A stretch of DNA of 64,000 bases from Minisyncoccota bacterium. Lineage in GTDB: Bacteria > Patescibacteriota > Minisyncoccia > Phycocordibacterales > Phycocordibacteraceae. The position numbers and the translations under genes are program-made. Positions 7,082 through 59,189 of this stretch are shown piece by piece (within the stretch, counting starts at the first letter, position 1; each line of letters begins with the position of its first letter). The notes beneath the pieces are model-generated. The model saw only the letters and a list, made by a program, of their open reading frames with translations, made no database searches and had not been told where the DNA came from. Location of the stretch: assembly GCA_035547315.1 (NCBI GenBank), contig DASZVH010000004.1:76108-140107 (forward strand). Reading direction: 5' to 3'.

Positions 7082-8228
7082 GGAGCGCAGGGAGGAGGGA
7101 AAGCCGCGCGCGGCCGCCGCGCGCGGCGCGCATATCTCGCTCGGCCTCGGCGGGCTCGTCCTGATCGGCGCGGGCGCTTACCTCGCGCTCTGGAGCAACC
7201 TCTTTTCGATCGAGTACACGCGCGCGGACGGCGCGAGCTCGACCCCGCGCTACAAGGCGATCGACCCGGCGCTCTACAACCTCGAGGAGCTCGCGCTCGC
7301 GCACATCGACCCCTCCTTGACCACCCTGCTCCAGCCGCAGAACGCCTCCTCGACCTTGCTGGCCGCGACCACCACCGCCTCGAGCTCGGTGGCGATAGCG
7401 GGGAAGGCCTGGCCCGCGCCCTCGCCCTACCCGGCGCCCGGCGCGCTCCTCCCCGCGCATCGCATCGTGGCCTACTACGGCAACTTCTATTCCACCGCGA
7501 TGGGCGTGCTCGGCGAGTACCCCGCGGACCAGGTGCTCGCGATGCTCGCCTCCACGAGCGCCGAGTGGGAGGCGGCGGATCCGGCCACGCCGGTCATCCC
7601 GGCGATCGACTACATCGCGGTGACCGCGCAGGCCGCCGCCGGCGCCGACGGCAAGTACCGCGCGCGCATGCCGGCGAGCCAGATCGAGCAGGCGATCGCG
7701 ATGGCCAGCCAGCTCCACGGCATCGTGATTCTCGACGTGCAGGTCGGGCTCTCCGACCTGCCGACCGAACTCCCGCTCTTGGCGCCCTATCTCTCGCTCC
7801 CCAACGTCAATCTCGCGATCGATCCCGAGTTCTCGATGCAGACCAGCGGAGCCCGGCCGGGAACCGTCATCGGCACGTATAGCGCCAAGGATATCGACTA
7901 CGCGATCGACTACCTCGACTCCCTGGTGAAGCAAAACGATCTGCCGCCCAAGATCCTGGTGGTGCACCGCTTTACCGAGGACATGGTGACCAATTACCAA
8001 AACATCACGCCGCTCCCGGACGTGCAGGTGGTGATGGACATGGACGGCTGGGGCGACCAAGCCAAGAAGATCAACACCTACGAGCGCGTGATCGCGAGCG
8101 AGCCCGTTGAGTTCACCGGCTTCAAGCTTTTCTACAAGGCGGACTTGAAGCCGCCCTCGACCGGGCTTCTCGCGCCCGCGCAGGTATTGGCGCTCACGCC
8201 CGCGCCGATTTTCATCCAGTATCAATAA
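7062..8228 (+). CDS. hypothetical membrane-anchored protein, possibly TIM-barrel glycoside-hydrolase-like extracytoplasmic domain
   Basis: ORF overlapping helicase stop by 20 nt; TM segment LGGLVLIGAGAYLALW; motifs IVILDVQVG, ILVVHRFTEDMV, VVMDMDGWGD suggestive only. Confidence 0.45.
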   Translation: MMGRMPKERREEGKPRAAAARGAHISLGLGGLVLIGAGAYLALWSNLFSIEYTRADGASSTPRYKAIDPALYNLEELALAHIDPSLTTLLQPQNASSTLLAATTTASSSVAIAGKAWPAPSPYPAPGALLPAHRIVAYYGNFYSTAMGVLGEYPADQVLAMLASTSAEWEAADPATPVIPAIDYIAVTAQAAAGADGKYRARMPASQIEQAIAMASQLHGIVILDVQVGLSDLPTELPLLAPYLSLPNVNLAIDPEFSMQTSGARPGTVIGTYSAKDIDYAIDYLDSLVKQNDLPPKILVVHRFTEDMVTNYQNITPLPDVQVVMDMDGWGDQAKKINTYERVIASEPVEFTGFKLFYKADLKPPSTGLLAPAQVLALTPAPIFIQYQ

Positions 8229-8260
8229 GATGCGCGCTCGCTTCGCGAGCGCGCATCTTG
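8229..8260. terminator. perfect hairpin (aagatgcgcgctcgc-ttcg-cgagcgcgcatctt) between convergent genes
   Basis: 14-bp arms read directly, followed by ...gtttatttat. Confidence 0.5.
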
Positions 8261-8327
8261 CGCACCGTTTATTTATCCCCGGGCGTGCGGCCTGCCTTGA
8301 GGGCGCGCGCCGCGCGCGGCTCGGACG

Positions 8328-18062: not shown

Positions 18063-18071
18063 GTCATTTTG

Positions 18072-18486
18072 TGGAGGCGGGGGGAATTGAACCCCCGTCC
18101 GAATCCGGATTTGAGAGCGCTTCTACGACGCGTAGCTAGAGTTAGGCGCTAGGGCAGGATGCGAGGAACTCCAGCGAAACCATTCCTGCTTGATCCCTTT
18201 GTTTAATCCCGAGCCAGGGAATGGCGAAGGACGAGCCTATAGAAGATTCCGCCCCTCGCCGCGCTATAGGCGCCGGTGAGCGAGGGACGTCGCGCTAAGC
18301 GAAGGGAGCGAAACGCTCGACCTTACGCGTACGCGAACGCGAAGTTGCCCATACCGAAGTACGGAGACTTCACGCTTGCAAGAGTGTTCTTGGCAAGTTT
18401 GGCGCTCGAGAGGATTAGAGTGTCAGTCGAGCATGCACTGCGTCGCACGATTCTCAAAGAACGGACCGTCTAAGCCGGTCACCCCC
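18072..18486 (-). ncRNA. ssrA: tmRNA (transfer-messenger RNA)
   Basis: Minus strand starts GGGGGUGACCGGCUUAGACGG and ends ...GGACGGGGGUUCAAUUCCCCCCGCCUCCA (T-arm + acceptor with G3:U70 pair); directly downstream of smpB; internal short ORF ending UAA consistent with tag reading frame. Confidence 0.8.
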
Positions 18487-23374: not shown

Positions 23375-23447
23375 CCGCCCCTAGCTCAATGGTTAGAGCA
23401 CCGAGCTTATACCTCGGCGGTTCTTGGTTCGAGTCCAAGGGGGCGGA
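23375..23447 (+). tRNA. tRNA-Ile (anticodon UAU)
   Basis: Hand-folded cloverleaf: acceptor CCGCCCC/GGGGCGG, D GCTC-AATGGTTA-GAGC, anticodon stem CCGAG/CTCGG loop CUUAUAC, T-arm CTTGG-TTCGAGT-CCAAG, discriminator A; CCA not encoded. Confidence 0.7.
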
Positions 23448-23449
23448 CT

Positions 23450-36162: not shown

Positions 36163-36198
36163 GCGCGCCGTTAGCCATTGTGGTATAAAAGCGGGAAC

Positions 36199-36285
36199 GG
36201 AGGCGTCGCATAGTGGTCTAGTGCACCGCCTTGGAAAGGCGGCAGGCTCGAAAGGGCCTCGAGAGTTCGAATCTCTCCGCCTCCG
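36199..36285 (+). tRNA. tRNA-Ser (anticodon GGA)
   Basis: Hand-folded: acceptor GGAGGCG/CGCCTCC, anticodon stem CCGCC/GGCGG loop UUGGAAA, long variable arm (18 nt), T-arm GAGAG-TTCGAAT-CTCTC, discriminator G. Confidence 0.8.
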
Positions 36286-36351
36286 CCCTTAGAAAAAAGT
36301 ATCGGACAGACCCGAGTACCCAGAAATCGGGTCCCGAGCTAAAATGGGCAT

Positions 36352-36915
36352 ATGCAGACAAATGTCTTAATTTTCCACGGCACGGAAGGATATCCGGAGG
36401 AAAACTGGTTTCCTTGGATGAAAACCGAGATGGAGCAACGAGACTGCAAAGTGTTTGTGCCACAGTTCCCATCGCCGCCAGAGGTCGCTGCGAAAATCGG
36501 CGAGTGGTTTGACGTCCTGAAGGGGTACGAACAATATCTCGACGAGAACACGATCTTGATAGGTCATAGTTTGGGCGGAAAGTTTGCGCTGCGTCTTTTG
36601 GAAAAGTTGGAATGCCCAGTAAAAGCGGTTGCGTTCGTGGGTACGCCGATCGGAGTTCCGCCTATCGCAAATAACGAGCGCGACAATGCATTTACTGGGA
36701 ATGATTTCGATTGGGATGCAATTCGGAAGAAGGCAAAACATTTCATGGTGTACCAGTCAGATACGGATCCATATGTTGGGCTTGATAATGGAAAGGAACT
36801 CGCGAGACAGCTCGGCGTCGAGCTTTCGTTCGTCCCGAACGCAGGGCACTTCAACGCAAAAGCTGGATATACGAAATTTGATGCGTTGCGCGATGACATC
36901 TTGAAAATCCTCTAA
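36352..36915 (+). CDS. alpha/beta-fold serine hydrolase (YdeN/RBBP9-like)
   Basis: VLIFHGTEGYPEENWFPW..., nucleophile elbow GHSLGG, ...DTDPYV..., GHF. Confidence 0.7.
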   Translation: MQTNVLIFHGTEGYPEENWFPWMKTEMEQRDCKVFVPQFPSPPEVAAKIGEWFDVLKGYEQYLDENTILIGHSLGGKFALRLLEKLECPVKAVAFVGTPIGVPPIANNERDNAFTGNDFDWDAIRKKAKHFMVYQSDTDPYVGLDNGKELARQLGVELSFVPNAGHFNAKAGYTKFDALRDDILKIL

Positions 36916-36924
36916 CGACTTGCC

Positions 36925-37563
36925 ATGAGCTCCTCGGACGACATTGAACTTTCGGAAGCCCAATTCAACGAGTTTTACGAGAACTTCGGCTCCAATTCCT
37001 TTCAACTGCAAGGACGTGTGCTTGAAGACTTAGGGACGAAGCAGCTCGACATATATTTCAAGTCGATAGGATTCGCGACAACCGTAATCGGTGTCGTTGG
37101 TTTGATAGCTGGATTCGGGTTTACAGCCCTCGACCATGTAGAAAGCATGGCGCTATTTTTCTTTGGCGAAGTTCTATTGCTTGGAGGACTTTTTTACGGA
37201 CTCTTCTGGACTCAACAAAAATATCAGGCCGAATTTAAGTCGCTTGAGGAGGAGCGAAAGAAGCTCGCAGCTTTTTACGAGAAGAGGAATGGTAAATTTA
37301 TGGAGCTTTACAACAAATGGATTTCCGAACGGAGAATAAGCCGCACAGCTTTCGTTGAGTTGAACGAGATAGACAAAGGCTCGATAGAGCTTTTTAGAAC
37401 CGAAAAAGACAGACCGATCCCGTCAATCTATTCGCAGGCAATGTATATTCTCATGATCGCGGGTACGGTCGTCCTCCTCTCCTCCTTCTTCATTTGCCTA
37501 AATACAAAAAACAACCCGCGACCCGGAGGCCTCGATAATTTTTATTGGGGGCGGCTAAAATAG
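36925..37563 (+). CDS. hypothetical membrane protein (low-GC islet cargo)
   Basis: Four hydrophobic segments; lower-GC codon usage than flanks. Confidence 0.45.
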   Translation: MSSSDDIELSEAQFNEFYENFGSNSFQLQGRVLEDLGTKQLDIYFKSIGFATTVIGVVGLIAGFGFTALDHVESMALFFFGEVLLLGGLFYGLFWTQQKYQAEFKSLEEERKKLAAFYEKRNGKFMELYNKWISERRISRTAFVELNEIDKGSIELFRTEKDRPIPSIYSQAMYILMIAGTVVLLSSFFICLNTKNNPRPGGLDNFYWGRLK

Positions 37564-37733
37564 CCTTACAAGGATTGACCTCAAAAGTCTGAATCCCTCA
37601 CCCTCCGCAGATAGAAACTTCGGACTCGGACAGAGCCGCGCCGCGAAGCGGCGCGGCAGAGTGGGCGGGCAGAAAATCCCGCCGCGAAGCGGCGAATTCA
37701 GACGGGGCGGCGGCGGAAAAATGCGGGGACTTG

Positions 37734-39712: not shown

Positions 39713-39718
39713 TTTTTT
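39681..39718 (+). terminator. rho-independent terminator overlapping DUF192 stop codon
   Basis: aaacgccgcctc-tcatc-gaggcggcgttt hairpin followed by gattttttgg. Confidence 0.5.
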
Positions 39719-39720
39719 GG

Positions 39721-40080
39721 GGACCCGGCCGATAAGCCGAATTCTGTCTTGCTTCGCCGTAGCCCGGCGAGGCGAGGCGATCATTTATCTGTCTCGATTG
39801 TCGCCAACCGGATCAAGCGGCACCCCCGCCGCACCTCGCAGGTGGGCGGGTACGGCCTTGCACGCGGGTAAGGATTTAGCCGTTTCATCCCGTACCTTGC
39901 GGTACGGCTCGCCCCTCGGGATTACCCTCGGGGCGCTTGCACGCTTTCGCCGCAAGCGTCTCTGTTCGCACCTCGCGCCTCGCGGCGTGCGGGGATTACC
40001 CGCTACCTTGCTGCTCCCGAGGGAGCGCGTGTTCGGACTTTCCTCCCCGCCGAAAGCGGAGCGATCGCCTGGCCGGGTCC
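39721..40080 (-). ncRNA. rnpB: RNase P RNA (bacterial type A-like)
   Basis: Minus strand: P1 GGACCCGGCC...GGCCGGGUCC closing helix; P4 strands GGGAGGAAAGUCCGAACAC and ACAGAAUUCGGCUUAUCGG present at expected 5'/3' positions; about 360 nt; track ORFs here are Arg-rich non-coding. Confidence 0.75.
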
Positions 40081-46100: not shown

Positions 46101-46439
46101 ATGCGGCGGATCGAGTGGAGGAAGGGGCTTGCGATCGGCGTACTTATCCTGACCGCCGTCTGGCTCGGCTCCCTGATCTGGAGTTTGGCGGGAAAGGCGG
46201 ACCTCGCCTGGCGGCAGGCGCACGACACGCGGGCCGAGTACCTGGCGCTCGAGGCGCGGCGGCAGGAGCTTGCCGCCGACAGCGCCGCGCTCGAGACGCC
46301 GCGCGGGCAGGACGCCGCCATTCGCGAGGCCTTCGGCGTTGCGCGGCCGGGAGAAGAGGTTATCGTGGTAGTGCCGCCTGCCACCTCGACGCCCACCTCG
46401 ACGCCGCCGTGGTGGCGGCAGGTGCTGGATTGGTTCTAA
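46101..46439 (+). CDS. FtsB/DivIC-like septum formation initiator family protein (TM + coiled coil)
   Basis: AAGAAGG RBS; KGLAIGVLILTAVWLGSLIWSL TM then RAEYLALEARRQELAADSAALE coiled coil. Confidence 0.45.
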   Translation: MRRIEWRKGLAIGVLILTAVWLGSLIWSLAGKADLAWRQAHDTRAEYLALEARRQELAADSAALETPRGQDAAIREAFGVARPGEEVIVVVPPATSTPTSTPPWWRQVLDWF

Positions 46440-46467
46440 ATAAGGAAGAACCGGTTTTGCTTTTGGT

Positions 46468-46541
46468 GCAGGATTAGTTTAGTGGCAGAATAGTTGCTTC
46501 CCAAGCAATAGGCGCGAGTTCGATTCTCGCATCCTGCACCA
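46468..46541 (+). tRNA. tRNA-Gly (anticodon CCC), CCA encoded
   Basis: Hand-folded: acceptor GCAGGAT/ATCCTGC, anticodon stem GTTGC/GCAAT loop UUCCCAA, T-arm GCGAG-TTCGATT-CTCGC. Confidence 0.8.
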
Positions 46542-46555
46542 AGCGCAAAACCGAT

Positions 46556-46589
46556 GAAAACGGGGCCCCGCTCCCCGTTTTCATTTTCC
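46556..46589 (+). terminator. rho-independent terminator after tRNA-Gly
   Basis: gaaaacgggg-ccccgct-ccccgttttc followed by auuuucc. Confidence 0.5.
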
Positions 46590-46628
46590 AAGCAATAGGC
46601 GGGAGTTCGATGCTCCCATTCCGCACAG
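46586..46628 (+). repeat. degenerate duplicate of tRNA-Gly 3' half (attachment-site-like)
   Basis: ttccaagcaataggcgggagttcgatgctcccattccgcaca vs tRNA ttcccaagcaataggcgcgagttcgattctcgcatcctgcacca (about 36/43 identical). Confidence 0.5.
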
Positions 46629-46666
46629 CGGTCAGAGACCCGTTTTTAGTCCGCGAGGCCTCTTAA

Positions 46667-46918
46667 AAAGTTCGCAACCGTGAGGCCTGTTCGGTTGAGG
46701 ATCCCACGTTTCAGACGCTCGGCTACGCCGTTGCGAAAATCGACACAACGAAGTTCCTCGGCATCTTTCCGATCAAGCAGAAACCGCGCCCTATCGTCTT
46801 CATCACCGACAACGGCAAGGCGGCGGTCTATGACCGCTCAATTCTCGATATCGTTAACGAAGAACTGGATCGCGCAGGTCTCGGTGCTTGCGCCCAGTTC
46901 GAAGAATGTCCGGTCTAG
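46667..46918 (+). pseudogene. orphan C-terminal gene fragment (83 codons, no start codon) downstream of tRNA-Gly duplicate
   Basis: Frame reads ...DPTFQTLGYAVAKIDTTKFLGIFPIKQKPRPIVFITDNGKAAVYDRSILDIVNEELDRAGLGACAQFEECPV* with protein-like composition but begins immediately after an in-frame TAA. Confidence 0.3.
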
Positions 46919-46936
46919 TTAAACGGGCACAAATAA

Positions 46937-46966
46937 AAAGGCCCGGGGATTTCTCCTCGGGCCTTT
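46937..46966 (-). terminator. rho-independent terminator of 358-aa hypothetical gene
   Basis: Minus strand aaaggcccg-aggagaaatccc-cgggccttt followed by UUUAUUUG. Confidence 0.5.
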
Positions 46967-46985
46967 CGATATTGCGTTAACGGAA

Positions 46986-48062
46986 CTATTCGGTGAACAC
47001 AATGTTGACGAAGGCGCCAATCGAGCCTACCCAGAGCAGATACTTGGGAAAGCAGCGAATAAGTTCCGCCGTGCTCAAGAGCACGTTGCCGCGCGGAAGA
47101 TCGTATTCCCGCTCGGCATACTGCGAATCGCTGATCATCCAGTAGTAGGAGCGGTCATAGCGAACGAAGCCGCATACCACTTGGTTATGCTGGCCGTGCA
47201 TGCGACGCTGCGCATACAGGACGACATTTACCATATAGCCGTTGCAGATCGCCTCCGCCAAGTTGCTCTCGAACTTCGAGAGCGTCCATAAGCGCCATGG
47301 AGCATTGATGCCGTACTTCTGGAGGAAGCTGGTGACTTGCGACGGCAGGGCGTGCTTGAAGTACTTTCCTTGACCGGGATCCTTTTTGAAGGCACCGACG
47401 ATGCTCCTGGCAGCGATCTGCGCGCAGTAGAAACCAGGCTCAAAGTCCGTGATGTAGACGGGCTTCCGAACGCTGGCCACTACTTCGTCCGGCCTCGACT
47501 GCTCGAACGGTTTTGCCGCATCGATCAATTCCTGTTCGCCTGCACGGATGGTACGGACGCGCAGGAGGAAGCGGTGATCAAGCGACCAGCGTTTCTTTGT
47601 CGCCGGGACGCCATAGACCCACTGCTCGCGTTTGTTGCTTGCGGGCAATCGAACGCTCTGGAGAGCGTAGCCGTAGTCAGCATAGGTCAGTGCGGTCAGC
47701 ACTTCACCGAGCTTGTCGGAGTCGTTGTCCAGACAGAGCCGCAAGAGTGCTTCAATGTCGCAAACATCGAATACTTTGCCGCGAGGCAAGTATTTCTTGC
47801 TTGCGGGATATAGGCACCGCGAACCCCTGAGATCTCCCATGAATGGAGGCTCGGTACAACCAAGCTCGCGAGCTGTGAGGATCGCGCACTCAATCGTGCC
47901 AGCCAGTGCCGTTTCGTCGGAAGCACGGTAGTATTTCTTCAGGAAGGCGCGGCCGAGGCTATCAACGCGATAGCCAACAGCACGTAGCTCTTGGGGGAGC
48001 GACTGCGCCAAGCCGCGTTGCCAAGGCAGTAGTGAGATATTGAACGTGGCAATGGTCGCCAT
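46986..48062 (-). CDS. hypothetical protein (lower GC, about 55%); likely horizontally acquired
   Basis: Long ORF with protein-like composition; no family recognised. Confidence 0.5.
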   Translation of the reverse strand: MATIATFNISLLPWQRGLAQSLPQELRAVGYRVDSLGRAFLKKYYRASDETALAGTIECAILTARELGCTEPPFMGDLRGSRCLYPASKKYLPRGKVFDVCDIEALLRLCLDNDSDKLGEVLTALTYADYGYALQSVRLPASNKREQWVYGVPATKKRWSLDHRFLLRVRTIRAGEQELIDAAKPFEQSRPDEVVASVRKPVYITDFEPGFYCAQIAARSIVGAFKKDPGQGKYFKHALPSQVTSFLQKYGINAPWRLWTLSKFESNLAEAICNGYMVNVVLYAQRRMHGQHNQVVCGFVRYDRSYYWMISDSQYAEREYDLPRGNVLLSTAELIRCFPKYLLWVGSIGAFVNIVFTE

Positions 48063-48265
48063 CGCTCTCTCCTTTCTTCAGTTTCTGCTCTTACAAAGAG
48101 CGGTTGCGGGACGATTCCCCCTAGCGACAAAGATAACAGTAATCTGCACCCGTGTCAAGAGCAGATGTGTTCTGAGCTTTTAGGCATTCGTTGGCATTTT
48201 GCAACATGCAACATACCCTCTTTTGGCGTTGCATTCTATATCATTTTGAGCGCTTTCCGAACGCA

Positions 48266-48302
48266 AACCGAACACTCGAAACGGCTCTTTTCGTGTTCGG
48301 TT
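48266..48302. repeat. 10-bp inverted repeat AACCGAACAC...GTGTTCGGTT in divergent intergenic region
   Basis: Read directly. Confidence 0.45.
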
Positions 48303-48314
48303 TGTTCGCTTTTG

Positions 48315-48580
48315 CAGTCCGCAACCGCGAGGCTCGCGCCAGCGACTCGTGAGACACGCTCAAAACGCCGAAATACCTTGCAACTGCTTGCTGGAATGCC
48401 GAAAACGAGACAGTTTCCAATATGGCCTACCTGTGTCTCATTTGTCTCATCTTGTACCCGACCGCGAGGCCTCGATTGGGCCTAGCGACTACTCGCCAAA
48501 CGGCCCTTGTGGTGCCTCGCTTGGGGTAGTCCGCAACTGCGAGGGGGCACCCGTTATCGAGGCGTCTTCATCGAAACAAT
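48315..48580. repeat. three imperfect roughly 50-bp direct repeats (core (g)tccgcaac(c/t)gcgagg...agcgact(a)ctcg...aaacg) in low-GC non-coding region
   Basis: Copies begin near 48315, 48452 and 48523; spacing irregular (137 and 71 bp). Confidence 0.4.
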
Positions 48581-48607
48581 AGGGGAAATATGGCGTACTA
48601 AGGGCAT

Positions 48608-48970
48608 ATGGCATCGACCAAGCAGGTGCTTGCGGCGGGAGCGGCGGCCGCAGTAATGGCTGCGGGCGGGGCGGCAGGGATACCCGCCCCGGCCGCAGCG
48701 GCCGGGGCGGGCGCCCTCGAGCCGCCCGTCGGGAGCGTCTTCTCGGGCACTATAGAGATCGCCTCGACCCAAGGACTCCTGGTCGGCCGCAAGCAGAAGA
48801 AGGGCGGCGGACAGCTTATCGCGGTAGATACCGACGCCTCGACGGTGGTCTCCAAAGGCGGCCTCGAGCGGTCGGTAGAGGATCTTGCAAGCGGCGCGGA
48901 GGTCATCGTCTCAGGCGCAAAGCAGGAGGACGGCAGCATCTTGGCCTCCAAGATCATCATCAGAAATTAA
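48608..48970 (+). CDS. small secreted protein, DUF5666-like beta-barrel repeats
   Basis: Ala-rich signal region; ...GSVFSGTIEIAST.GLLV... and DLASGAEVIVSGAKQEDGSILASKIIIRN repeat units. Confidence 0.45.
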   Translation: MASTKQVLAAGAAAAVMAAGGAAGIPAPAAAAGAGALEPPVGSVFSGTIEIASTQGLLVGRKQKKGGGQLIAVDTDASTVVSKGGLERSVEDLASGAEVIVSGAKQEDGSILASKIIIRN

Positions 48971-49044
48971 TGCCTGCGCCGCCTCGCGCGGCTTCCCGGC
49001 CGAGCGGAGTGCTGGGGATGACTTTGTATGCTACAATCGGCGGT

Positions 49045-49284
49045 ATGAAACCCGTCACGATCTACAGCACCCCGACCTGCCACTTCTGCGGCATGACCAA
49101 GGAGTATTTGAAGGCCAACAACGTCGCCTACACCGAGTTCGACGTCGCGCACGACGCCGCCAAGCGCCAGGAGATGATCCAGAAGTCGGGCCAGATGGGC
49201 GTACCGGTGATTCTCATCGGAGAGGAGCTTATCGTGGGCTTTGACAAGCCCAGGATCCAGGGCGCGCTCGGCCTGCCGGCCTGA
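49045..49284 (+). CDS. glutaredoxin-like protein (NrdH/Grx family, CHFC active site)
   Basis: MKPVTIYSTPTCHFCGMTKEYLKANNVAYTEFDV...GQMGVPVILIGEELIVGFD thioredoxin-fold motif; alternative upstream start 48970. Confidence 0.7.
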   Translation: MKPVTIYSTPTCHFCGMTKEYLKANNVAYTEFDVAHDAAKRQEMIQKSGQMGVPVILIGEELIVGFDKPRIQGALGLPA

Positions 49285-55720: not shown

Positions 55721-56434
55721 TCAGGCCGCGCTGCGATATTGGAAATATTTTAGCACCTCGAAGAGGGCGAAGAACACGACCGCCGCGCTCCAAACGAGGA
55801 AGAAGGCGGAGAGCGCCGCGGAGCCGCCTCCAGAGATGATAAGCGCGTTGAAGGCGGCATGCAATCCGACCGCGAGGATAAGTCCGGCGGCGGCGTAGAC
55901 GATGCGCGCCAGAGGCGACTTCTTCCAGGAGAAGGCGAGCGCGAAGCCGATCGAGGCGGAGGCGACCACGTGGAGCAGGGTCGAGCCGACGAAGCGCAGG
56001 TTGTCGGTCTCGAAGCCCAAGAGGAATTGGCCGGAGGAGAGCGGAGCGAGCAGGAAGAGCGCGTTCTCGCAGGCGGCGAAGCCCAGAGCGACCGTAATCA
56101 GGTAGATGACGTAATCGGGCGCCTCGTCGACAGCGCTGCGCCAGAGGATAAAGAGGGCGCCGGCGAGATACTTGAGCGTCTCTTCGGCGATGGCCCAGGA
56201 GACCAGCACGGGGAGCGAGGTCGCCGCGAGGCCCAAGAGCGCGAGCCGGCTCCGCGCGGCCTCCTCAAGCGGGATCGCGAGCGGGACCGCGAGGGCGCCC
56301 GCGAAGAAGGCGAGCGCGATCAGGGATTTGGGCTCCGGGTGCTCGGCATCCTCCTTGAGCAGGAAATAGAGCCAGATCAGGGCCGGCACTATCCCCCCGA
56401 GCACCGCATATCCGATTGTCTCGAACGAGGGCAT
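55721..56434 (-). CDS. PrsW-family intramembrane metalloprotease
   Basis: EExxK (AIAEETLKY), FxxxE (FAACENALF), HxxxN (HAAFNAL) motifs within TM helices. Confidence 0.6.
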   Translation of the reverse strand: MPSFETIGYAVLGGIVPALIWLYFLLKEDAEHPEPKSLIALAFFAGALAVPLAIPLEEAARSRLALLGLAATSLPVLVSWAIAEETLKYLAGALFILWRSAVDEAPDYVIYLITVALGFAACENALFLLAPLSSGQFLLGFETDNLRFVGSTLLHVVASASIGFALAFSWKKSPLARIVYAAAGLILAVGLHAAFNALIISGGGSAALSAFFLVWSAAVVFFALFEVLKYFQYRSAA

Positions 56435-56471
56435 TACCCCCTCATTCTAGCAGGTGGTTTATACTGAAACG

Positions 56472-56969
56472 ATGAGCCATGTCGTGTGGGTGGACGAACA
56501 AGATAACGTGCTCGGCGCAGTCGAGCGCCAGAAAGCGCATGCAGAAGGATTGCGCCATCGAATTTCAGTTATTTTTCTTGTAAACGAGCAGGGCGAAGTC
56601 TTGGTTAATGAGCGAGCGAAAGACGGTCTTCTTGACCATTCCTCCGCGGGACATCTTGACCCAGGCGAAAGTTATCTCAACGGCGCAAAACGGAAGCTAA
56701 AAGAAGAACTCGGAGTGGAAGCTGAACTCACCGATATCGGCCATGGAGAGAGCCGCGATTATCGGCCTCCTCTCGACGGCAGGCATTTCTTCAAAGTATA
56801 TGTTGCTCACGCAAAGCCAGTAGCGCCTGACCCGACCGAAGTAAAGCATGTCTATTGGGCCGATCCCCAAAAGATTCTCGTGGATATGACAAAAAATCCG
56901 GATCGGTATACCGAGGGCTTTAAGGCCTCACTTCCAATATTCTTAAACCGGCCAATGGGAAATCATTAA
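56472..56969 (+). CDS. NUDIX hydrolase (IDI-like)
   Basis: Nudix box GHLDPGESYLNGAKRKLKEELGV; lower GC than flanks; alternative GTG start 56454. Confidence 0.65.
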   Translation: MSHVVWVDEQDNVLGAVERQKAHAEGLRHRISVIFLVNEQGEVLVNERAKDGLLDHSSAGHLDPGESYLNGAKRKLKEELGVEAELTDIGHGESRDYRPPLDGRHFFKVYVAHAKPVAPDPTEVKHVYWADPQKILVDMTKNPDRYTEGFKASLPIFLNRPMGNH

Positions 56970-59189
56970 GAACTCGGCGTTTTTGGTGGGGAGGGATTGG
57001 TAGATTTCCTCGGTGAGGAAGGGCATGAAGGGGTGGAGCGCCTTCACCAAGGCATCGAGCGCGTAGAGGAGGAAGGCCTGGCGCGAGGCCTTTCCCGCCT
57101 CGGGAGCGCTCGAGGGCGCGACTTTGGTGCCGAGTATCTGCTTCGACTCCTCGAGGATCTCGTCGGCGAGCCGATGCCATGCGTAGTGATAGAGCTTCTC
57201 CGCGGCGAGATAGAAGCGGGACTCCTCGAGATCTTTGGTCACATCCGCGAGGAGAGAATCAAGCTCGTCCGCGAGTTCTTGATCGACCGGCAGCAGCGTC
57301 GAGGGATAGTAAGACTTGGCCGAGCGGCCCGGAGCGCTTTCCCGAGATGCTGCTGCCGGGAGATCTGGCGCGCTCTCCAAGATAAAGCGCGCGATGTTCC
57401 ACAATTTATTCGCGAAGTGCTTGTAGCCCTTGACCTTCTGCTCGTCGAACTTTATGTCGTTGCCGACCGCCGTGCCGACCAAGAGGCCCATCCGCAGCGC
57501 GTCCGCTCCATATTTGTCGATCATTTCCAGGGGGTCGATGCCGTTGCCCTGCGACTTGGAGAACTTGCGCCCGCTCTTGTCGCGTACGAGGCCGTGGATC
57601 AGCACGGTCTTGAAGGGGACCTGCCCAAGATGGAAGCCGGCCATGAGTATCATGCGCGAGACCCAGAGAGTGAGGATCTCGTAGCCCGGGCTCATAAAAG
57701 CGGTCGGGTGGTAGGTGCCGAGATCCAGAGTGTGGTCGGGCCAGCCGAGCGTGGAGAAGGTCCAGAGCGCGGAGGAGAACCAGGTGTCGAGCACGTCCGG
57801 GTCCTGGAGCCAGGTCGCGGAGTCCTCGGGCGCCTCGCCCACGCGGATCTCCTCGCCGCGATACCAGACCGGGATCCGGTGGCCGAACCAGATCTGCCTG
57901 CTGATGCACCAGTCGCGCAGGTTGTCGATCCAGTGGAAGTACGCGTTGCGGAATCCCTCTTGCGGCATCGCGACCGCGCCGCTCTCGACCGCCTTGCGCA
58001 TCAGCTGCTTGAGCGTGATCGGCGCTCCGGCGGGGATTCCGGGGATGGAAGAGTGCGCGAGAGTGAAGGGCTTCTCTACGTCCACCCACCACTGCATCTT
58101 GGGCAAGGGCTCGATAACGGCGCCGGTGCGCTCGGCGGTCGCGATGTTTTGCAACACATCCTCCTCCTTCTCCAAGAGGCCCTGGCTCTGGAGCCAGTCG
58201 ACCACGGCCGCGCGCGCCTCGGCGGCCTTGAGCCCGTTAAGGCGGCCCTCGACCTTCATCTTGGCGTATTCGTTGATCACGACGTTGTCGGTGGGGAGCG
58301 CGTGGCGGCGGGCGATCTCCCAGTCTATTTGCGAGTGCGCCGGAGTGACCCCGACCGCGCCGGTGCCGAAGGAGGGATCAACCGCCGCGTCCGCGACGAT
58401 CTTGAGATGGACAGGCACGTCGCAGAATACGGTGTCGTACTCTTTGCCGAGGAACGGCTGGTAGCGCGGGTCCTCGGGGTGCACCGCGACCGCGACGTCG
58501 CCCGCTTTGGTCTCCGGGCGCGTGGTCGCTATCGAGATCGGGAAGTCTTTGGAATATTTGAAGGTGTAGAGCTTGCCCGGGCGCTCCTCGTAGACGATCT
58601 CGTCGTCGCTGATGGTGGTCTGGCCCTTCGGGTCCCAGTTGACGATGCGGTAGCCGCGATAGATAAGCCCGGCCTTGTACATCCGCGTGAAGGCCTCGGT
58701 GACCGCGCGGCTGCGCGCCTTGTCGAGCGCGTAAGCGTAGCGGCTCCAGTCCAGGCTCGCGCCCATGCGGCGGATCTGGTTGAGGATCGTAGACTCGCTC
58801 TCCTTGGCAAAGGCGGTAATCCGGCGCACGAGCTCCTCGCGCCCGAGATCGTGCCGGCTCTTGCCCTCCTCCTTTTGGATATTCTTCTCTACGCGCGCCT
58901 GGGTCGCGATCGCGGCCGAGTCGGTCCCGGGCACAAACAGCGCGCGCTTTCCGCGCATGCGCGCGTAGCGGATCACCGCGTCCTGGAGCGAGTCTTCATA
59001 GGCATGGCCCAGGTGGAGCACGCCCGTGACATTGACCGGCGGGAGCACGACCGAGAAGGGCTCGGTGCGCTCGCCTGGGAGATTGTCGGGGTTGAAATAC
59101 CCGCTCTTCTCCCAGGCCTCGTAGATTCTCCCCTCGGTCCCTGCCGGGTCGTAGGGCTTGGTGAATTTGGGGTCTACCTCTTTTGCCAT
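56943..59189 (-). CDS. valS: valine--tRNA ligase (short form)
   Basis: PPVNVTGVLHLGHA (HIGH), KFSKSQGN (KMSKS), ValS-type N-terminus YDPAGTEGRIYEAWEKSGYF; 748 aa, shorter than typical ValS. Confidence 0.75.
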   Translation of the reverse strand: MAKEVDPKFTKPYDPAGTEGRIYEAWEKSGYFNPDNLPGERTEPFSVVLPPVNVTGVLHLGHAYEDSLQDAVIRYARMRGKRALFVPGTDSAAIATQARVEKNIQKEEGKSRHDLGREELVRRITAFAKESESTILNQIRRMGASLDWSRYAYALDKARSRAVTEAFTRMYKAGLIYRGYRIVNWDPKGQTTISDDEIVYEERPGKLYTFKYSKDFPISIATTRPETKAGDVAVAVHPEDPRYQPFLGKEYDTVFCDVPVHLKIVADAAVDPSFGTGAVGVTPAHSQIDWEIARRHALPTDNVVINEYAKMKVEGRLNGLKAAEARAAVVDWLQSQGLLEKEEDVLQNIATAERTGAVIEPLPKMQWWVDVEKPFTLAHSSIPGIPAGAPITLKQLMRKAVESGAVAMPQEGFRNAYFHWIDNLRDWCISRQIWFGHRIPVWYRGEEIRVGEAPEDSATWLQDPDVLDTWFSSALWTFSTLGWPDHTLDLGTYHPTAFMSPGYEILTLWVSRMILMAGFHLGQVPFKTVLIHGLVRDKSGRKFSKSQGNGIDPLEMIDKYGADALRMGLLVGTAVGNDIKFDEQKVKGYKHFANKLWNIARFILESAPDLPAAASRESAPGRSAKSYYPSTLLPVDQELADELDSLLADVTKDLEESRFYLAAEKLYHYAWHRLADEILEESKQILGTKVAPSSAPEAGKASRQAFLLYALDALVKALHPFMPFLTEEIYQSLPTKNAEFLMISHWPV

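Follow-up and report, generated by a model that had tools for sequence, protein, structure and literature searches.

The closest described analogue of the locus reported here is the tycheposons, the additive tRNA-proximal islands of Prochlorococcus (Hackl et al., bioRxiv 10.1101/2020.12.28.424599). Our locus lies at positions 46452-48591 of a 64-kb stretch of DNA from a Minisyncoccota bacterium (contig DASZVH010000004.1; "the window" denotes this whole stretch of 64,000 nucleotides) and comprises a tRNA-Gly(CCC) gene, a partial tRNA-Gly copy and about 2 kb of low-GC DNA. As in tycheposons, a full-length tRNA stands at the proximal end of a hypervariable island, partial tRNAs and degenerate elements pile up by the tRNA, the cargo is of a niche or accessory kind and most genomes are without an active element; the site-specific recombinases of tycheposons, which are tyrosine recombinases or, in a minority, large serine recombinases (LSRs), are a further likeness. 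The differences are that the partial tRNA of the window lies 43 nt from the tRNA and not at the far end of the element, and that related genomes carry an old tRNA 5' fragment upstream, with a complete replacement tRNA between the two pieces. Moreover, the host belongs to the candidate phyla radiation (CPR), the relatives carry an LSR and not a recombinase of the tycheposon tyrosine recombinase clade, and no replication module was seen.

Two other classes of elements invite comparison. Classical LSR prophages and islands (phiC31, Bxb1, A118, SCCmec-type) integrate in protein-coding genes or at the 3' ends of such genes and are not known to use tRNA genes. The relatives of our locus resemble them in that the element end towards the attachment (att) site encodes a Resolvase+Recombinase+Zn-ribbon protein of 440-490 aa, and homologues of these LSRs are frequent in predicted viral contigs; in contrast to the classical elements, the site abuts a tRNA 3' end here and in four IMG/VR contigs, and the window is without a recombinase. 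Cis-mobilizable elements (CIMEs) are att-flanked elements without recombination genes. Their remnants are similar to our locus in being short DNA with att-like repeats and no integrase, in tandem with other elements at a single site, whereas the unit described below is about 117 bp long, holds a whole tRNA gene between inverted arms and replaces 6 nt of its target rather than duplicating an att core.

We consider it likely that the locus is a layered relic, composed of an LSR-family island and a tRNA cassette, at a hot spot of recurrent insertion on the 3' side of tRNA-Gly(CCC). Gene flow in Patescibacteria/CPR is poorly documented, because the genomes are tiny and have few recognisable mobile elements, and the locus and its candidate recombinases are offered here for the study of horizontal transfer.

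An insertion hot spot between tRNA-Gly(CCC) and glutaredoxin

A one-genome-per-species scan with the LepA C-terminal domain gave 80 related loci (labelled L with three digits) and placed Kaiserbacteria-like genomes closest to the window. LepA amino-acid identity across the relatives is 64-84%. The order MurJ, LepA, DivIC-like gene, tRNA-Gly(CCC), variable segment, glutaredoxin (Grx), tRNA-Arg(CCT) and usually tRNA-Phe is common to the 80 loci, and the gap between tRNA-Gly and Grx ranges from 27 bp to more than 5 kb. It measures 27-100 bp in 16 of the 80 genomes, where the promoter-like TTTCTGTGGATAAC...TGnTATACT of Grx lies directly 3' of the tRNA; in many genomes it comes to between several hundred bp and 1.8 kb, and in others to 2.6-3.8 kb or more. 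The cargo differs between genomes and is mutually unrelated (P-type ATPases, ABC transporter, histidine kinase, GH3, DUF6671 and Cas1); the variable segments supplied 58 open reading frames (ORFs) with a length of 110 aa or above for comparison. Because the related genomes have the same layout, the tRNA-Gly(CCC)-Grx junction can be regarded as a recurrent, additive and family-wide insertion hot spot in Kaiserbacteria-like Paceibacterota.

The genome with the top LepA identity (L007) has the tRNA, 49 nt and then a DUF5666 gene, and similarity between it and the window restarts at 48592. This empty state, together with the resuming similarity, means that the window carries a 2,050-bp insertion at 46542-48591. 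The flanking gene is as follows:

48608..48970, + strand, DUF5666 gene, native flank outside the island (Pfam and synteny)

A DUF5666 gene also precedes Grx in L006, L007, L032, L072 and L077. The GC content of 46542-48591 is 0.55, against 0.67 and 0.69 in the flanks, and the dip extends over approximately 46400-48600. At third codon positions (GC3), the two reading frames of the insertion, one of 358 aa and one of 83 codons without a start, have values of 0.67-0.70, compared with 0.78-0.93 in the neighbouring genes; neither frame occurs in any of the 80 related loci. A full-length tRNA adjoins the insertion, which is present or absent among relatives, and a partial tRNA repeat and a deviant base composition accompany it, all of them marks of tRNA islands. 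The island is a gene-poor remnant of a mobile element, about 2 kb long, and an ordinary member of this known class.

A first-pass annotation of the sequence had proposed that the region is the decayed remains of an element integrated into tRNA-Gly, to be checked by composition and by synteny. Both checks came out in its favour, with the GC values above and with sites that are empty or differently filled in the relatives, not identical in content, so that foreign, decayed DNA at an integration site stands. Its anatomy had to be redrawn: the partial tRNA copy, taken for the distal att repeat, is read below as a stump displaced by a separate cassette of about 117 bp, the 358-aa gene does not look decayed, and the element would be of the LSR type, as its relatives suggest.

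The partial copy and the resident tRNA

The following features make up the proximal part of the locus:

46443..46451, + strand, candidate remnant of the D-arm end of an old tRNA, AGGAAGAAC against AGTGGTAGAAC (aligns with the ...GTAGAAC end of the 5' fragments of relatives; weak)
46452..46467, + strand, arm A5' CGGTTTTGCTTTTGGT, leader pairing with the trailer and extending the acceptor stem
46468..46541, + strand, intact tRNA-Gly(CCC), the 'new' tRNA of the cassette (ARAGORN; Rfam, 68.8 bits)
46539..46553, + strand, arm A3' CCAAGCGCAAAACCG, complement of A5' (inverted repeat, duplex energy, fold, alignment)
46554..46584, + strand, hairpin B, terminator-like, ATGAAAACGGGG-CCCCGCT-CCCCGTTTTCAT (inverted repeat I11, 12 nt, 100%; terminator-like site; fold z = -6)
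46585..46626, + strand, stump of an older tRNA-Gly from anticodon loop to discriminator base (positions 32-73), anticodon TCC (36/42 to the resident tRNA)

The stump begins 43 nt past the end of the tRNA, with TTTCCAAG starting at 46585. Its similarity to the resident tRNA is far beyond chance, because the next-best match of the tRNA part or of the copy on both strands of the window is 24-25/42; a third copy of the tRNA 3' part is absent from the 64 kb. The first-pass annotation had described a 43-nt copy at about 36/43 and a terminator after the tRNA: the copy withstands the alignment test at 36/42 against a maximum of 25/42 elsewhere, and the terminator corresponds to a perfect 12-bp terminator-like hairpin between tRNA and copy. 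The differences in the T stem are compensatory (GCGAG/CTCGC versus GGGAG/CTCCC), which indicates that the copy descends from a once-functional tRNA-Gly of a different allele. The stump matches the tRNA-Gly of L007, L014, L042 and others at 38/42 (90%), and the junction at the anticodon loop is identical in the window and its relatives. The partial copy is thus best interpreted as the 3' two-thirds of an older tRNA-Gly gene displaced by a cassette, and not as the distal att repeat of the island.

The two arms form an inverted repeat (I1, 23 nt, 91%) in which CGGTTTTGCTTTTGG just 5' of the tRNA pairs with CCAAGCGCAAAACCG just 3' of it, so that the acceptor stem gains 15 positions. The leader-trailer duplex, at -21.1 kcal/mol, is one of the five strongest among 72 loci (median -7.35), alongside L054, L033, L073 and L021. 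The predicted RNA fold reproduces the pairing of the arms, and the same arm is present in relatives. Hairpin B ends at 46584, exactly where the old anticodon loop starts, and its stem letters vary between relatives with the pairing always kept. On the upstream side, AGGAAGAAC immediately follows the stop codon of the DivIC-like gene (46437-46439). Rfam has no family for the hairpins, the stump or the repeats of the window and of four relatives.

The possibility that hairpin B is the native terminator of the tRNA was rejected, because the tRNAs of empty-site genomes run directly into the Grx promoter.

A nested tRNA-Gly architecture in related genomes

Examination of the related loci revealed a nested order: old tRNA positions 1-25, an arm of about 17 nt, a complete tRNA-Gly(CCC), the complementary arm, a hairpin, and old positions 32-76. 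The first piece is the acceptor 5' strand and D arm (e.g. GCGGAATTGGTTTAGTGGTAGAAC) and the last starts exactly at TTCCCAAG; the whole arrangement takes up about 45 nt before each tRNA-Gly and about 90 nt after it. A pattern scan detected the upstream 5' fragment in 13 relatives (L012, L031, L032, L033, L035, L044, L050, L054, L056, L058, L060, L065 and L073) and reading by eye added L083. Arm, intact tRNA, arm, hairpin and old positions 32-76 were aligned in L012, L031, L033, L050, L065, L073 and L083.

Base pairing connects the outer pieces. The acceptor strand of the 5' fragment pairs with the stump at 7/7 positions in L012, L033, L056 and L058, at six plus one GU in L050 and, by inspection, at 7/7 in L073, whereas the intact tRNA's own 5' strand makes just 4-5/7 pairs with the stump in L012, L033 and L056. 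This complementarity implies that fragment and stump are halves of one former tRNA-Gly gene, apparently split between nucleotides 25 and 32 by the segment with the replacement tRNA. The stumps are of several allele types that match functional tRNA-Gly genes of other species. In L012 the intact tRNA is unlike the stump type along its whole length, 5' half included, and in L031 the 5' fragment and the stump are of different allele types. A second configuration, found in L024, L032, L063, L071, L073, L078 and L080, has the intact tRNA, the old D arm, a closed hairpin A, hairpin B and the stump. The cassette junctions always lack six nucleotides of the old tRNA, positions 26-31.

The window shares with these loci the arms, the hairpin and the junction of the stump; its membership in the nested class follows from these three, since the old 5' fragment is not there. 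The nested replacement of a tRNA is the unusual part of the locus, clear in the relatives and partial in the window. Every stump has a tRNA or a further stump at a distance of no more than about 40-160 nt, and none marks the far end of an element with genes. A search of IMG/VR for the stump sequence and for the two junction patterns of the cassette gave no matches.

L083 is layered like the window, with cassette, stump, island end and cargo without a recombinase. The left end of the island follows the stump in the window and in L083, and follows the intact tRNA within the nested layout in L035 and L044. As the island end stands behind either an intact or an orphaned copy of tRNA-Gly, cassette and island look like separate layers.

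Relation to islands with large serine recombinases

The link to LSRs comes from the sequence directly behind the stump and from the genes behind its counterparts in relatives:

46627..46686, + strand, conserved left end of an LSR-type island family, AGCGGTCAG...TTTTTAGnCCGCGAGGC...GTTCGCAACCGyGAGG (alignment to L044, L035 and L072)
L035, 7198-10007, LSR gene region directly after tRNA-Gly(CCC)
L044, 7199-8524, LSR gene region directly after tRNA-Gly(CCC)
L020, 6706-8175, LSR gene region directly after tRNA-Gly(CCC)
L026, 10717-12114, LSR gene region about 3.7 kb downstream of tRNA-Gly(CCC)

Window positions 46585-46685 are colinear with the 3' half of the intact tRNA-Gly and the downstream sequence in three relatives, with identities of 79% over 101 nt (L044), 76% over 89 nt (L035) and 81% over 78 nt (L072); the similarity to these island ends stops at about 46686. 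In L035 and L044 the conserved end is followed by a terminator and then by a 441-454-aa protein with Resolvase, Recombinase and Zn_ribbon_recom domains, an LSR, and a more distant LSR adjoins tRNA-Gly in L020. Behind the LSR, L035 has cas1, a possible cas2 (a 98-aa ORF, assignment unscanned) and a non-coding region that is partly like window 48265-48455: window 48265-48314 and 48395-48455 match L035 10405-10454 and 10297-10352, respectively. L072 shares the downstream order of the window (DUF5666, Grx, tRNA-Arg, DoxX, HlyD), and 48415-48525 resembles its positions 8221-8325 by eye, of which tblastx backs just 48428-48508 versus 8232-8312, weakly. Given that the left end of the window island is homologous to sequences that are followed by LSRs in relatives, 46627-48591 may be read as what is left, without its recombinase, of an LSR-type island that adjoins the 3' end of a former tRNA-Gly gene and that an LSR would have moved.

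Decay of such islands at this site is recurrent, as L072 keeps the last 49 codons of an LSR of the L035/L044 type and L041 keeps 39 codons of one of the L020 type. No recombinase family other than the LSRs recurs between loci in the set of 58 gap ORFs. Homologues of these LSRs, at 43-62% identity, occur in 60 predicted viral contigs of IMG/VR, and in four of these (L115, L122, L139 and L146) a tRNA (Asp-GTC, Gln-CTG, Glu-TTC or Ser-CGA) faces the stop of the LSR from 120-210 nt off. This suggests an LSR clade whose targets are tRNA 3' ends. Behind the tRNA, L122 and L139 have a stretch similar to the 'TAGTGCTAAnnCAAGnGACT' that follows tRNA-Gly in L006, L009, L010, L015, L022 and L026. A degenerate pattern of the left end gave 23 matches in JGI metagenomes, one of them real (L092, an L044-like locus cut by the contig end).

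Content of the island remnant

Beyond the left end, the island consists of two convergent frames and a non-coding right part:

46667..46918, + strand, start-less 83-codon frame, after TAA and without ATG, GTG or TTG
46937..46966, no strand, hairpin between the convergent frames, likely a bidirectional terminator (inverted repeat I13, 13 nt, 92%)
46986..48062, - strand, 358-aa ORF (GC 0.57, GC3 0.70)
48063..48591, no strand, non-coding right part of the island, with repeats (right boundary from the comparison with L007)
48130..48158, - strand, sigma-70-like promoter candidate, TTGACA-17-TATCTT preceded by TG (consensus match only)
46653-46664, 46670-46686, 48316-48332, 48453-48469 and 48528-48544, direct orientation at both island ends, CCGCGAGG-containing motif with the 17-nt core (A)GTCCGCAACCGCGAGG

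The start-less frame begins within the conserved island end and runs past the break of homology at 46686. The first-pass annotation had called it a protein-like fragment; the frame exists, no search returned a homologue, and its protein-like character derives solely from its length and from a GC3 (0.67) above its total GC (0.55). A cargo gene was probably cut off at a deletion junction near 46686, by the deletion that would have removed the recombinase, and the frame would be its 3' part. The frame and the 358-aa gene converge on one hairpin (46937-46966), which over 30 nt has 90% identity with the hairpin that follows the homologous gene of L003.

The intergenic region 48063-48607 had been noted as a 545-bp, AT-richer and repeat-bearing stretch, and it is so: its GC content is 0.52, and it has a 12-bp hairpin at 48264-48304, a tandem GTCTCATTTGTCTCAT (GTCTCAT) at 48435 and the 17-nt motif AGTCCGCAACCGCGAGG three times (at 48316, 48453 and 48528), a fourth copy being at 46670 at the other end of the island. 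With at most one mismatch, the 13-nt core CGCAACCGCGAGG has three matches in the window, all of them within the island, and the left island ends of L035, L044 and L072 have kept one copy of the CCGCGAGG motif. The motif may be a protein-binding site. A CRISPR array was considered for the repeats at 48316-48545 and ruled out, for they have just the 17-nt core in common, lie at irregular distances of 137 and 75 nt and differ wholly in their flanks.

A protein with a predicted papain-like fold

The promoter candidate lies 68 nt upstream of the start of the 358-aa gene, and a hairpin stands beyond its stop; from this layout the gene looks intact and functional rather than decayed. It had been described as a gene of lower GC and without a recognisable family. 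Lower GC and the want of a sequence family hold, while a structure model gives its product a recognisable fold. No match to the protein, alone or as a profile, was found in Pfam, NCBIfam, PHROGs, PADLOC or the PDB sequences; tblastn against phage and plasmid collections and a scan of IMG/VR were blank, and the search of phage and plasmid proteins with protein and start-less fragment that had been recommended gave no matches. A word-indexed search returned the protein itself only, and with the family alignment as query just P0001, P0004 and P0005 (labels of this form denote proteins), all already known. A HMMER pass over 1.84 billion representative proteins gave six matches. The full-length relatives P0002, P0003 and P0005 are 32-38% identical to the 358-aa protein, and P0004 is a 108-aa fragment at 69%; P0007 (269 aa) matches residues 59-173 only, and P0006 is of low complexity and was disregarded. 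The protein appears on this evidence to belong to a family of about five members without annotated relatives. The contexts of the homologues (L002-L004) are short, without a tRNA and uninformative.

The alignment of five sequences has the invariant motifs AQRRxHGQH (283-292), YWxxxDxQ (307-314) and EYxLPxGN (319-326), and PGxxC (209-213) is conserved in the four full-length sequences, P0004 not reaching there. His289, His292 and Asp312 are accordingly invariant in 5/5 and Cys213 in the four. An AlphaFold2 model built from the family alignment has a pLDDT of 77 and a pTM of 0.74, compared with a pLDDT of 32 for the single-sequence model. Foldseek matched its C-terminal half to staphopains A, B and C (E = 1e-5 to 1e-4, probability 1.0), and further to SpvD, the type VI secretion system effector BtaeB, CtaG, cathepsins and an AvrRpt2-like phage protein. 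In the model, Cys213 opens the helix 213-225, His292 is at the start of a strand and Asp312 follows the next strand. The C-terminal half is therefore predicted by the model to have a papain-like cysteine-peptidase fold, with Cys213, His289/His292 and Asp312, in the usual geometry, as candidate catalytic residues; the gene would be expressed and the peptidase active. What tempers this assignment is a target-normalised TM-score to the proteases of about 0.5, for the C-terminal half only, and the shallow alignment (5 sequences) behind the model.

In comparison with clan CA (staphopains, C47; AvrRpt2, C70; SpvD; BtaeB), the predicted fold of residues ~200-358 is alike, with Foldseek E values down to 1e-5, as are the predicted Cys at a helix N-terminus, the His in a following strand and the Asp shortly after. 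The 358-aa protein differs in having no match to a curated profile, in its extra N-terminal domain and in its tiny family. That domain, of about 200 residues, has no fold match, and no signal peptide is evident. The family may be proposed as a candidate effector or accessory hydrolase, and it would add a new five-member group to the papain-like proteins. Beside P0002, L003 has a partial ORF (2148-2471, - strand) whose C-terminal GHPLILQI...GLHWISLWDYD... resembles C39-like papain-fold peptidases by eye.

Proposed history of the locus and alternative explanations

The reading that we think likely, a layered relic of LSR-family island and tRNA cassette, would have the following history. An LSR-family integrative island would first have joined the 3' end of a then-functional tRNA-Gly. 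It would later have lost its recombinase and most of its cargo by deletion, with one junction near 46686, leaving the 60-nt left end, the truncated frame, the separately promoted peptidase gene and the conserved non-coding sites at 48264-48545. In a second layer, a promoter-less cassette (46452-46584, composed of A5', tRNA-Gly, A3' and hairpin B) would have taken the place of the 5' part of the older tRNA. As the cassette abuts the old gene at the anticodon loop, old positions 32-73 would remain as the 'partial duplicate'. Transcription of the new tRNA would presumably start upstream and end at hairpin B, with the tRNA cut out of the long leader-trailer stem; the fold z of -6 and the terminator-like site are consistent with such processing and termination. 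We infer the movement by an LSR, the order of the two events and the manner of cassette insertion from these patterns, and in an alternative order the island may have integrated beside an already orphaned stump.

Besides that alternative order, several observations weigh against this history. The window has no LSR gene or remnant by tblastn; Pfam was blank for the sole intact ORF of the island, and four LSRs and Cas1 gave only chance matches in tblastn against the window. The second att copy that the first-pass annotation expected downstream was not found: the 64 kb hold no further match of at least 26/42, and 48000-49100 contain no short motif of the tRNA 3' end. With neither recombinase nor distal att in the window, the involvement of an LSR is deduced from the 60-nt homology and two short non-coding stretches. 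The right ends of the L035 and L044 elements are cut by contig ends, so a complete element is not visible. An old 5' fragment (1-25) that would pair with the stump is absent from the window, where at most nine degenerate nucleotides could represent it. Lastly, because positions 26-31 are missing, the cassette is not the simple product of a conservative LSR crossover, and the six missing target nucleotides equally rule out an identical-overlap tyrosine-recombinase product.

A bolder explanation, which we put forward tentatively and hold to be less likely than not, is that the cassette is a self-propagating tRNA-replacement element that inserts between nucleotides 25 and 32 of the resident tRNA-Gly(CCC) and destroys it, the window being one generation stacked on the relic of an LSR island. 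The cassette would take over the resident promoter and itself supply the now-essential tRNA, and so could not be lost. It would have inserted repeatedly into successive generations of tRNA-Gly across Kaiserbacteria, including copies on or attached to LSR islands. If the cassette was generated site-specifically, it would be an unusual addictive mobile DNA, by which an essential tRNA is split and functionally replaced, and a bacterial parallel to ideas that tie mobile elements to split or disrupted tRNA genes.

It is unlikely that the copy is instead the trace of a tyrosine integrase, with the intact tRNA as attL, made of the host's 5' half and a 3' half brought by the element, the copy as attR, holding the host's displaced 3' half, the element between them deleted down to 43 nt and the 2-kb DNA a separate, older insertion. 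The anticodon loop is the classical crossover site of tRNA-targeting tyrosine integrases, and the copy starts exactly there. Between the window and L007 the 5' half of the tRNA has just three differences, at positions 3 and 5 of the acceptor and at position 24, which could be compensatory change after a foreign 3' half had been gained, and tandem accretion beside tRNAs is known from tycheposon islands (10.1101/2020.12.28.424599). However, this explanation does not predict the old 5' fragment upstream of the intact tRNA in relatives, nor an intact tRNA such as that of L012, unlike the stump type even in its 5' half. No tyrosine integrase is among the recurring families of the 58 gap ORFs, although a single instance could hide there; the stumps are not found at the far end of gene-bearing elements, and the 15-nt leader-trailer pairing would be unexpected if the trailer were borne by the element.

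Less probable still is a transfer of the whole nested locus as a block from another Kaiserbacterium, by transformation and homologous recombination in LepA/DivIC and Grx, with no site-specific event in this lineage. The flanks are conserved enough for homologous recombination, as the LepA identities indicate, the mixed allele types of 5' fragment and stump in L031 suggest shuffling by recombination, and the downstream synteny and island family shared with L072 fit a block that was inherited or transferred. Yet such a transfer leaves unexplained the origin of the architecture, and also why the types of fragment and stump differ between species but match each other, and no near-identical donor locus was found in the 80 genomes or in the metagenome scan.

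Local tandem duplication of the tRNA 3' half and trailer by replication slippage, followed by decay, with no mobile element and with the low-GC DNA as a fast-evolving native or lineage-specific region, would suit the mere 87 nt from the start of the tRNA 3' half (46498) to that of the copy (46585) and the want of a recombinase in the window, but we dismiss it as most improbable, since the copy matches the resident tRNA at 36/42 but alleles of other species, of the L007 type, at 38/42, its deviations in T stem and acceptor form a coherent foreign pattern, the sequence past it is a homologue of LSR-island ends and not a second trailer, one junction recurs with different stump types in many species, 16 relatives have empty sites, and the GC3 of the island frames is 0.15-0.25 under that of host genes.

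Other features of the window

Another low-GC region (36289-37607, GC 0.47-0.54) follows a tRNA-Ser(GGA) at 36198-36288. Its ORFs are one for a protein of the Ser_hydrolase family (36352-36915) and one of 212 aa without assignment. The region closes with a degenerate repeat of the tRNA-Ser 3' end (37572-37607, 25/36) and may be a second small att-flanked island. A third GC dip, at 56000-57500 (0.56-0.57), has no adjoining tRNA and carries an ORF with a NUDIX domain (56454-56969) and a 202-aa ORF without assignment.

Among RNA genes, a tmRNA gene at 18069-18486 (- strand) was recognised by Rfam (71.8 bits) without a report by ARAGORN and coincides with a local GC dip. A tRNA-Ile with the anticodon TAT (UAU) is predicted at 23375-23448 (+ strand); this anticodon is uncommon in bacteria. 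Finally, a bacterial class A RNase P RNA lies at 39717-40080 (- strand; 114.8 bits), and is found upstream of MurJ in the relatives too.

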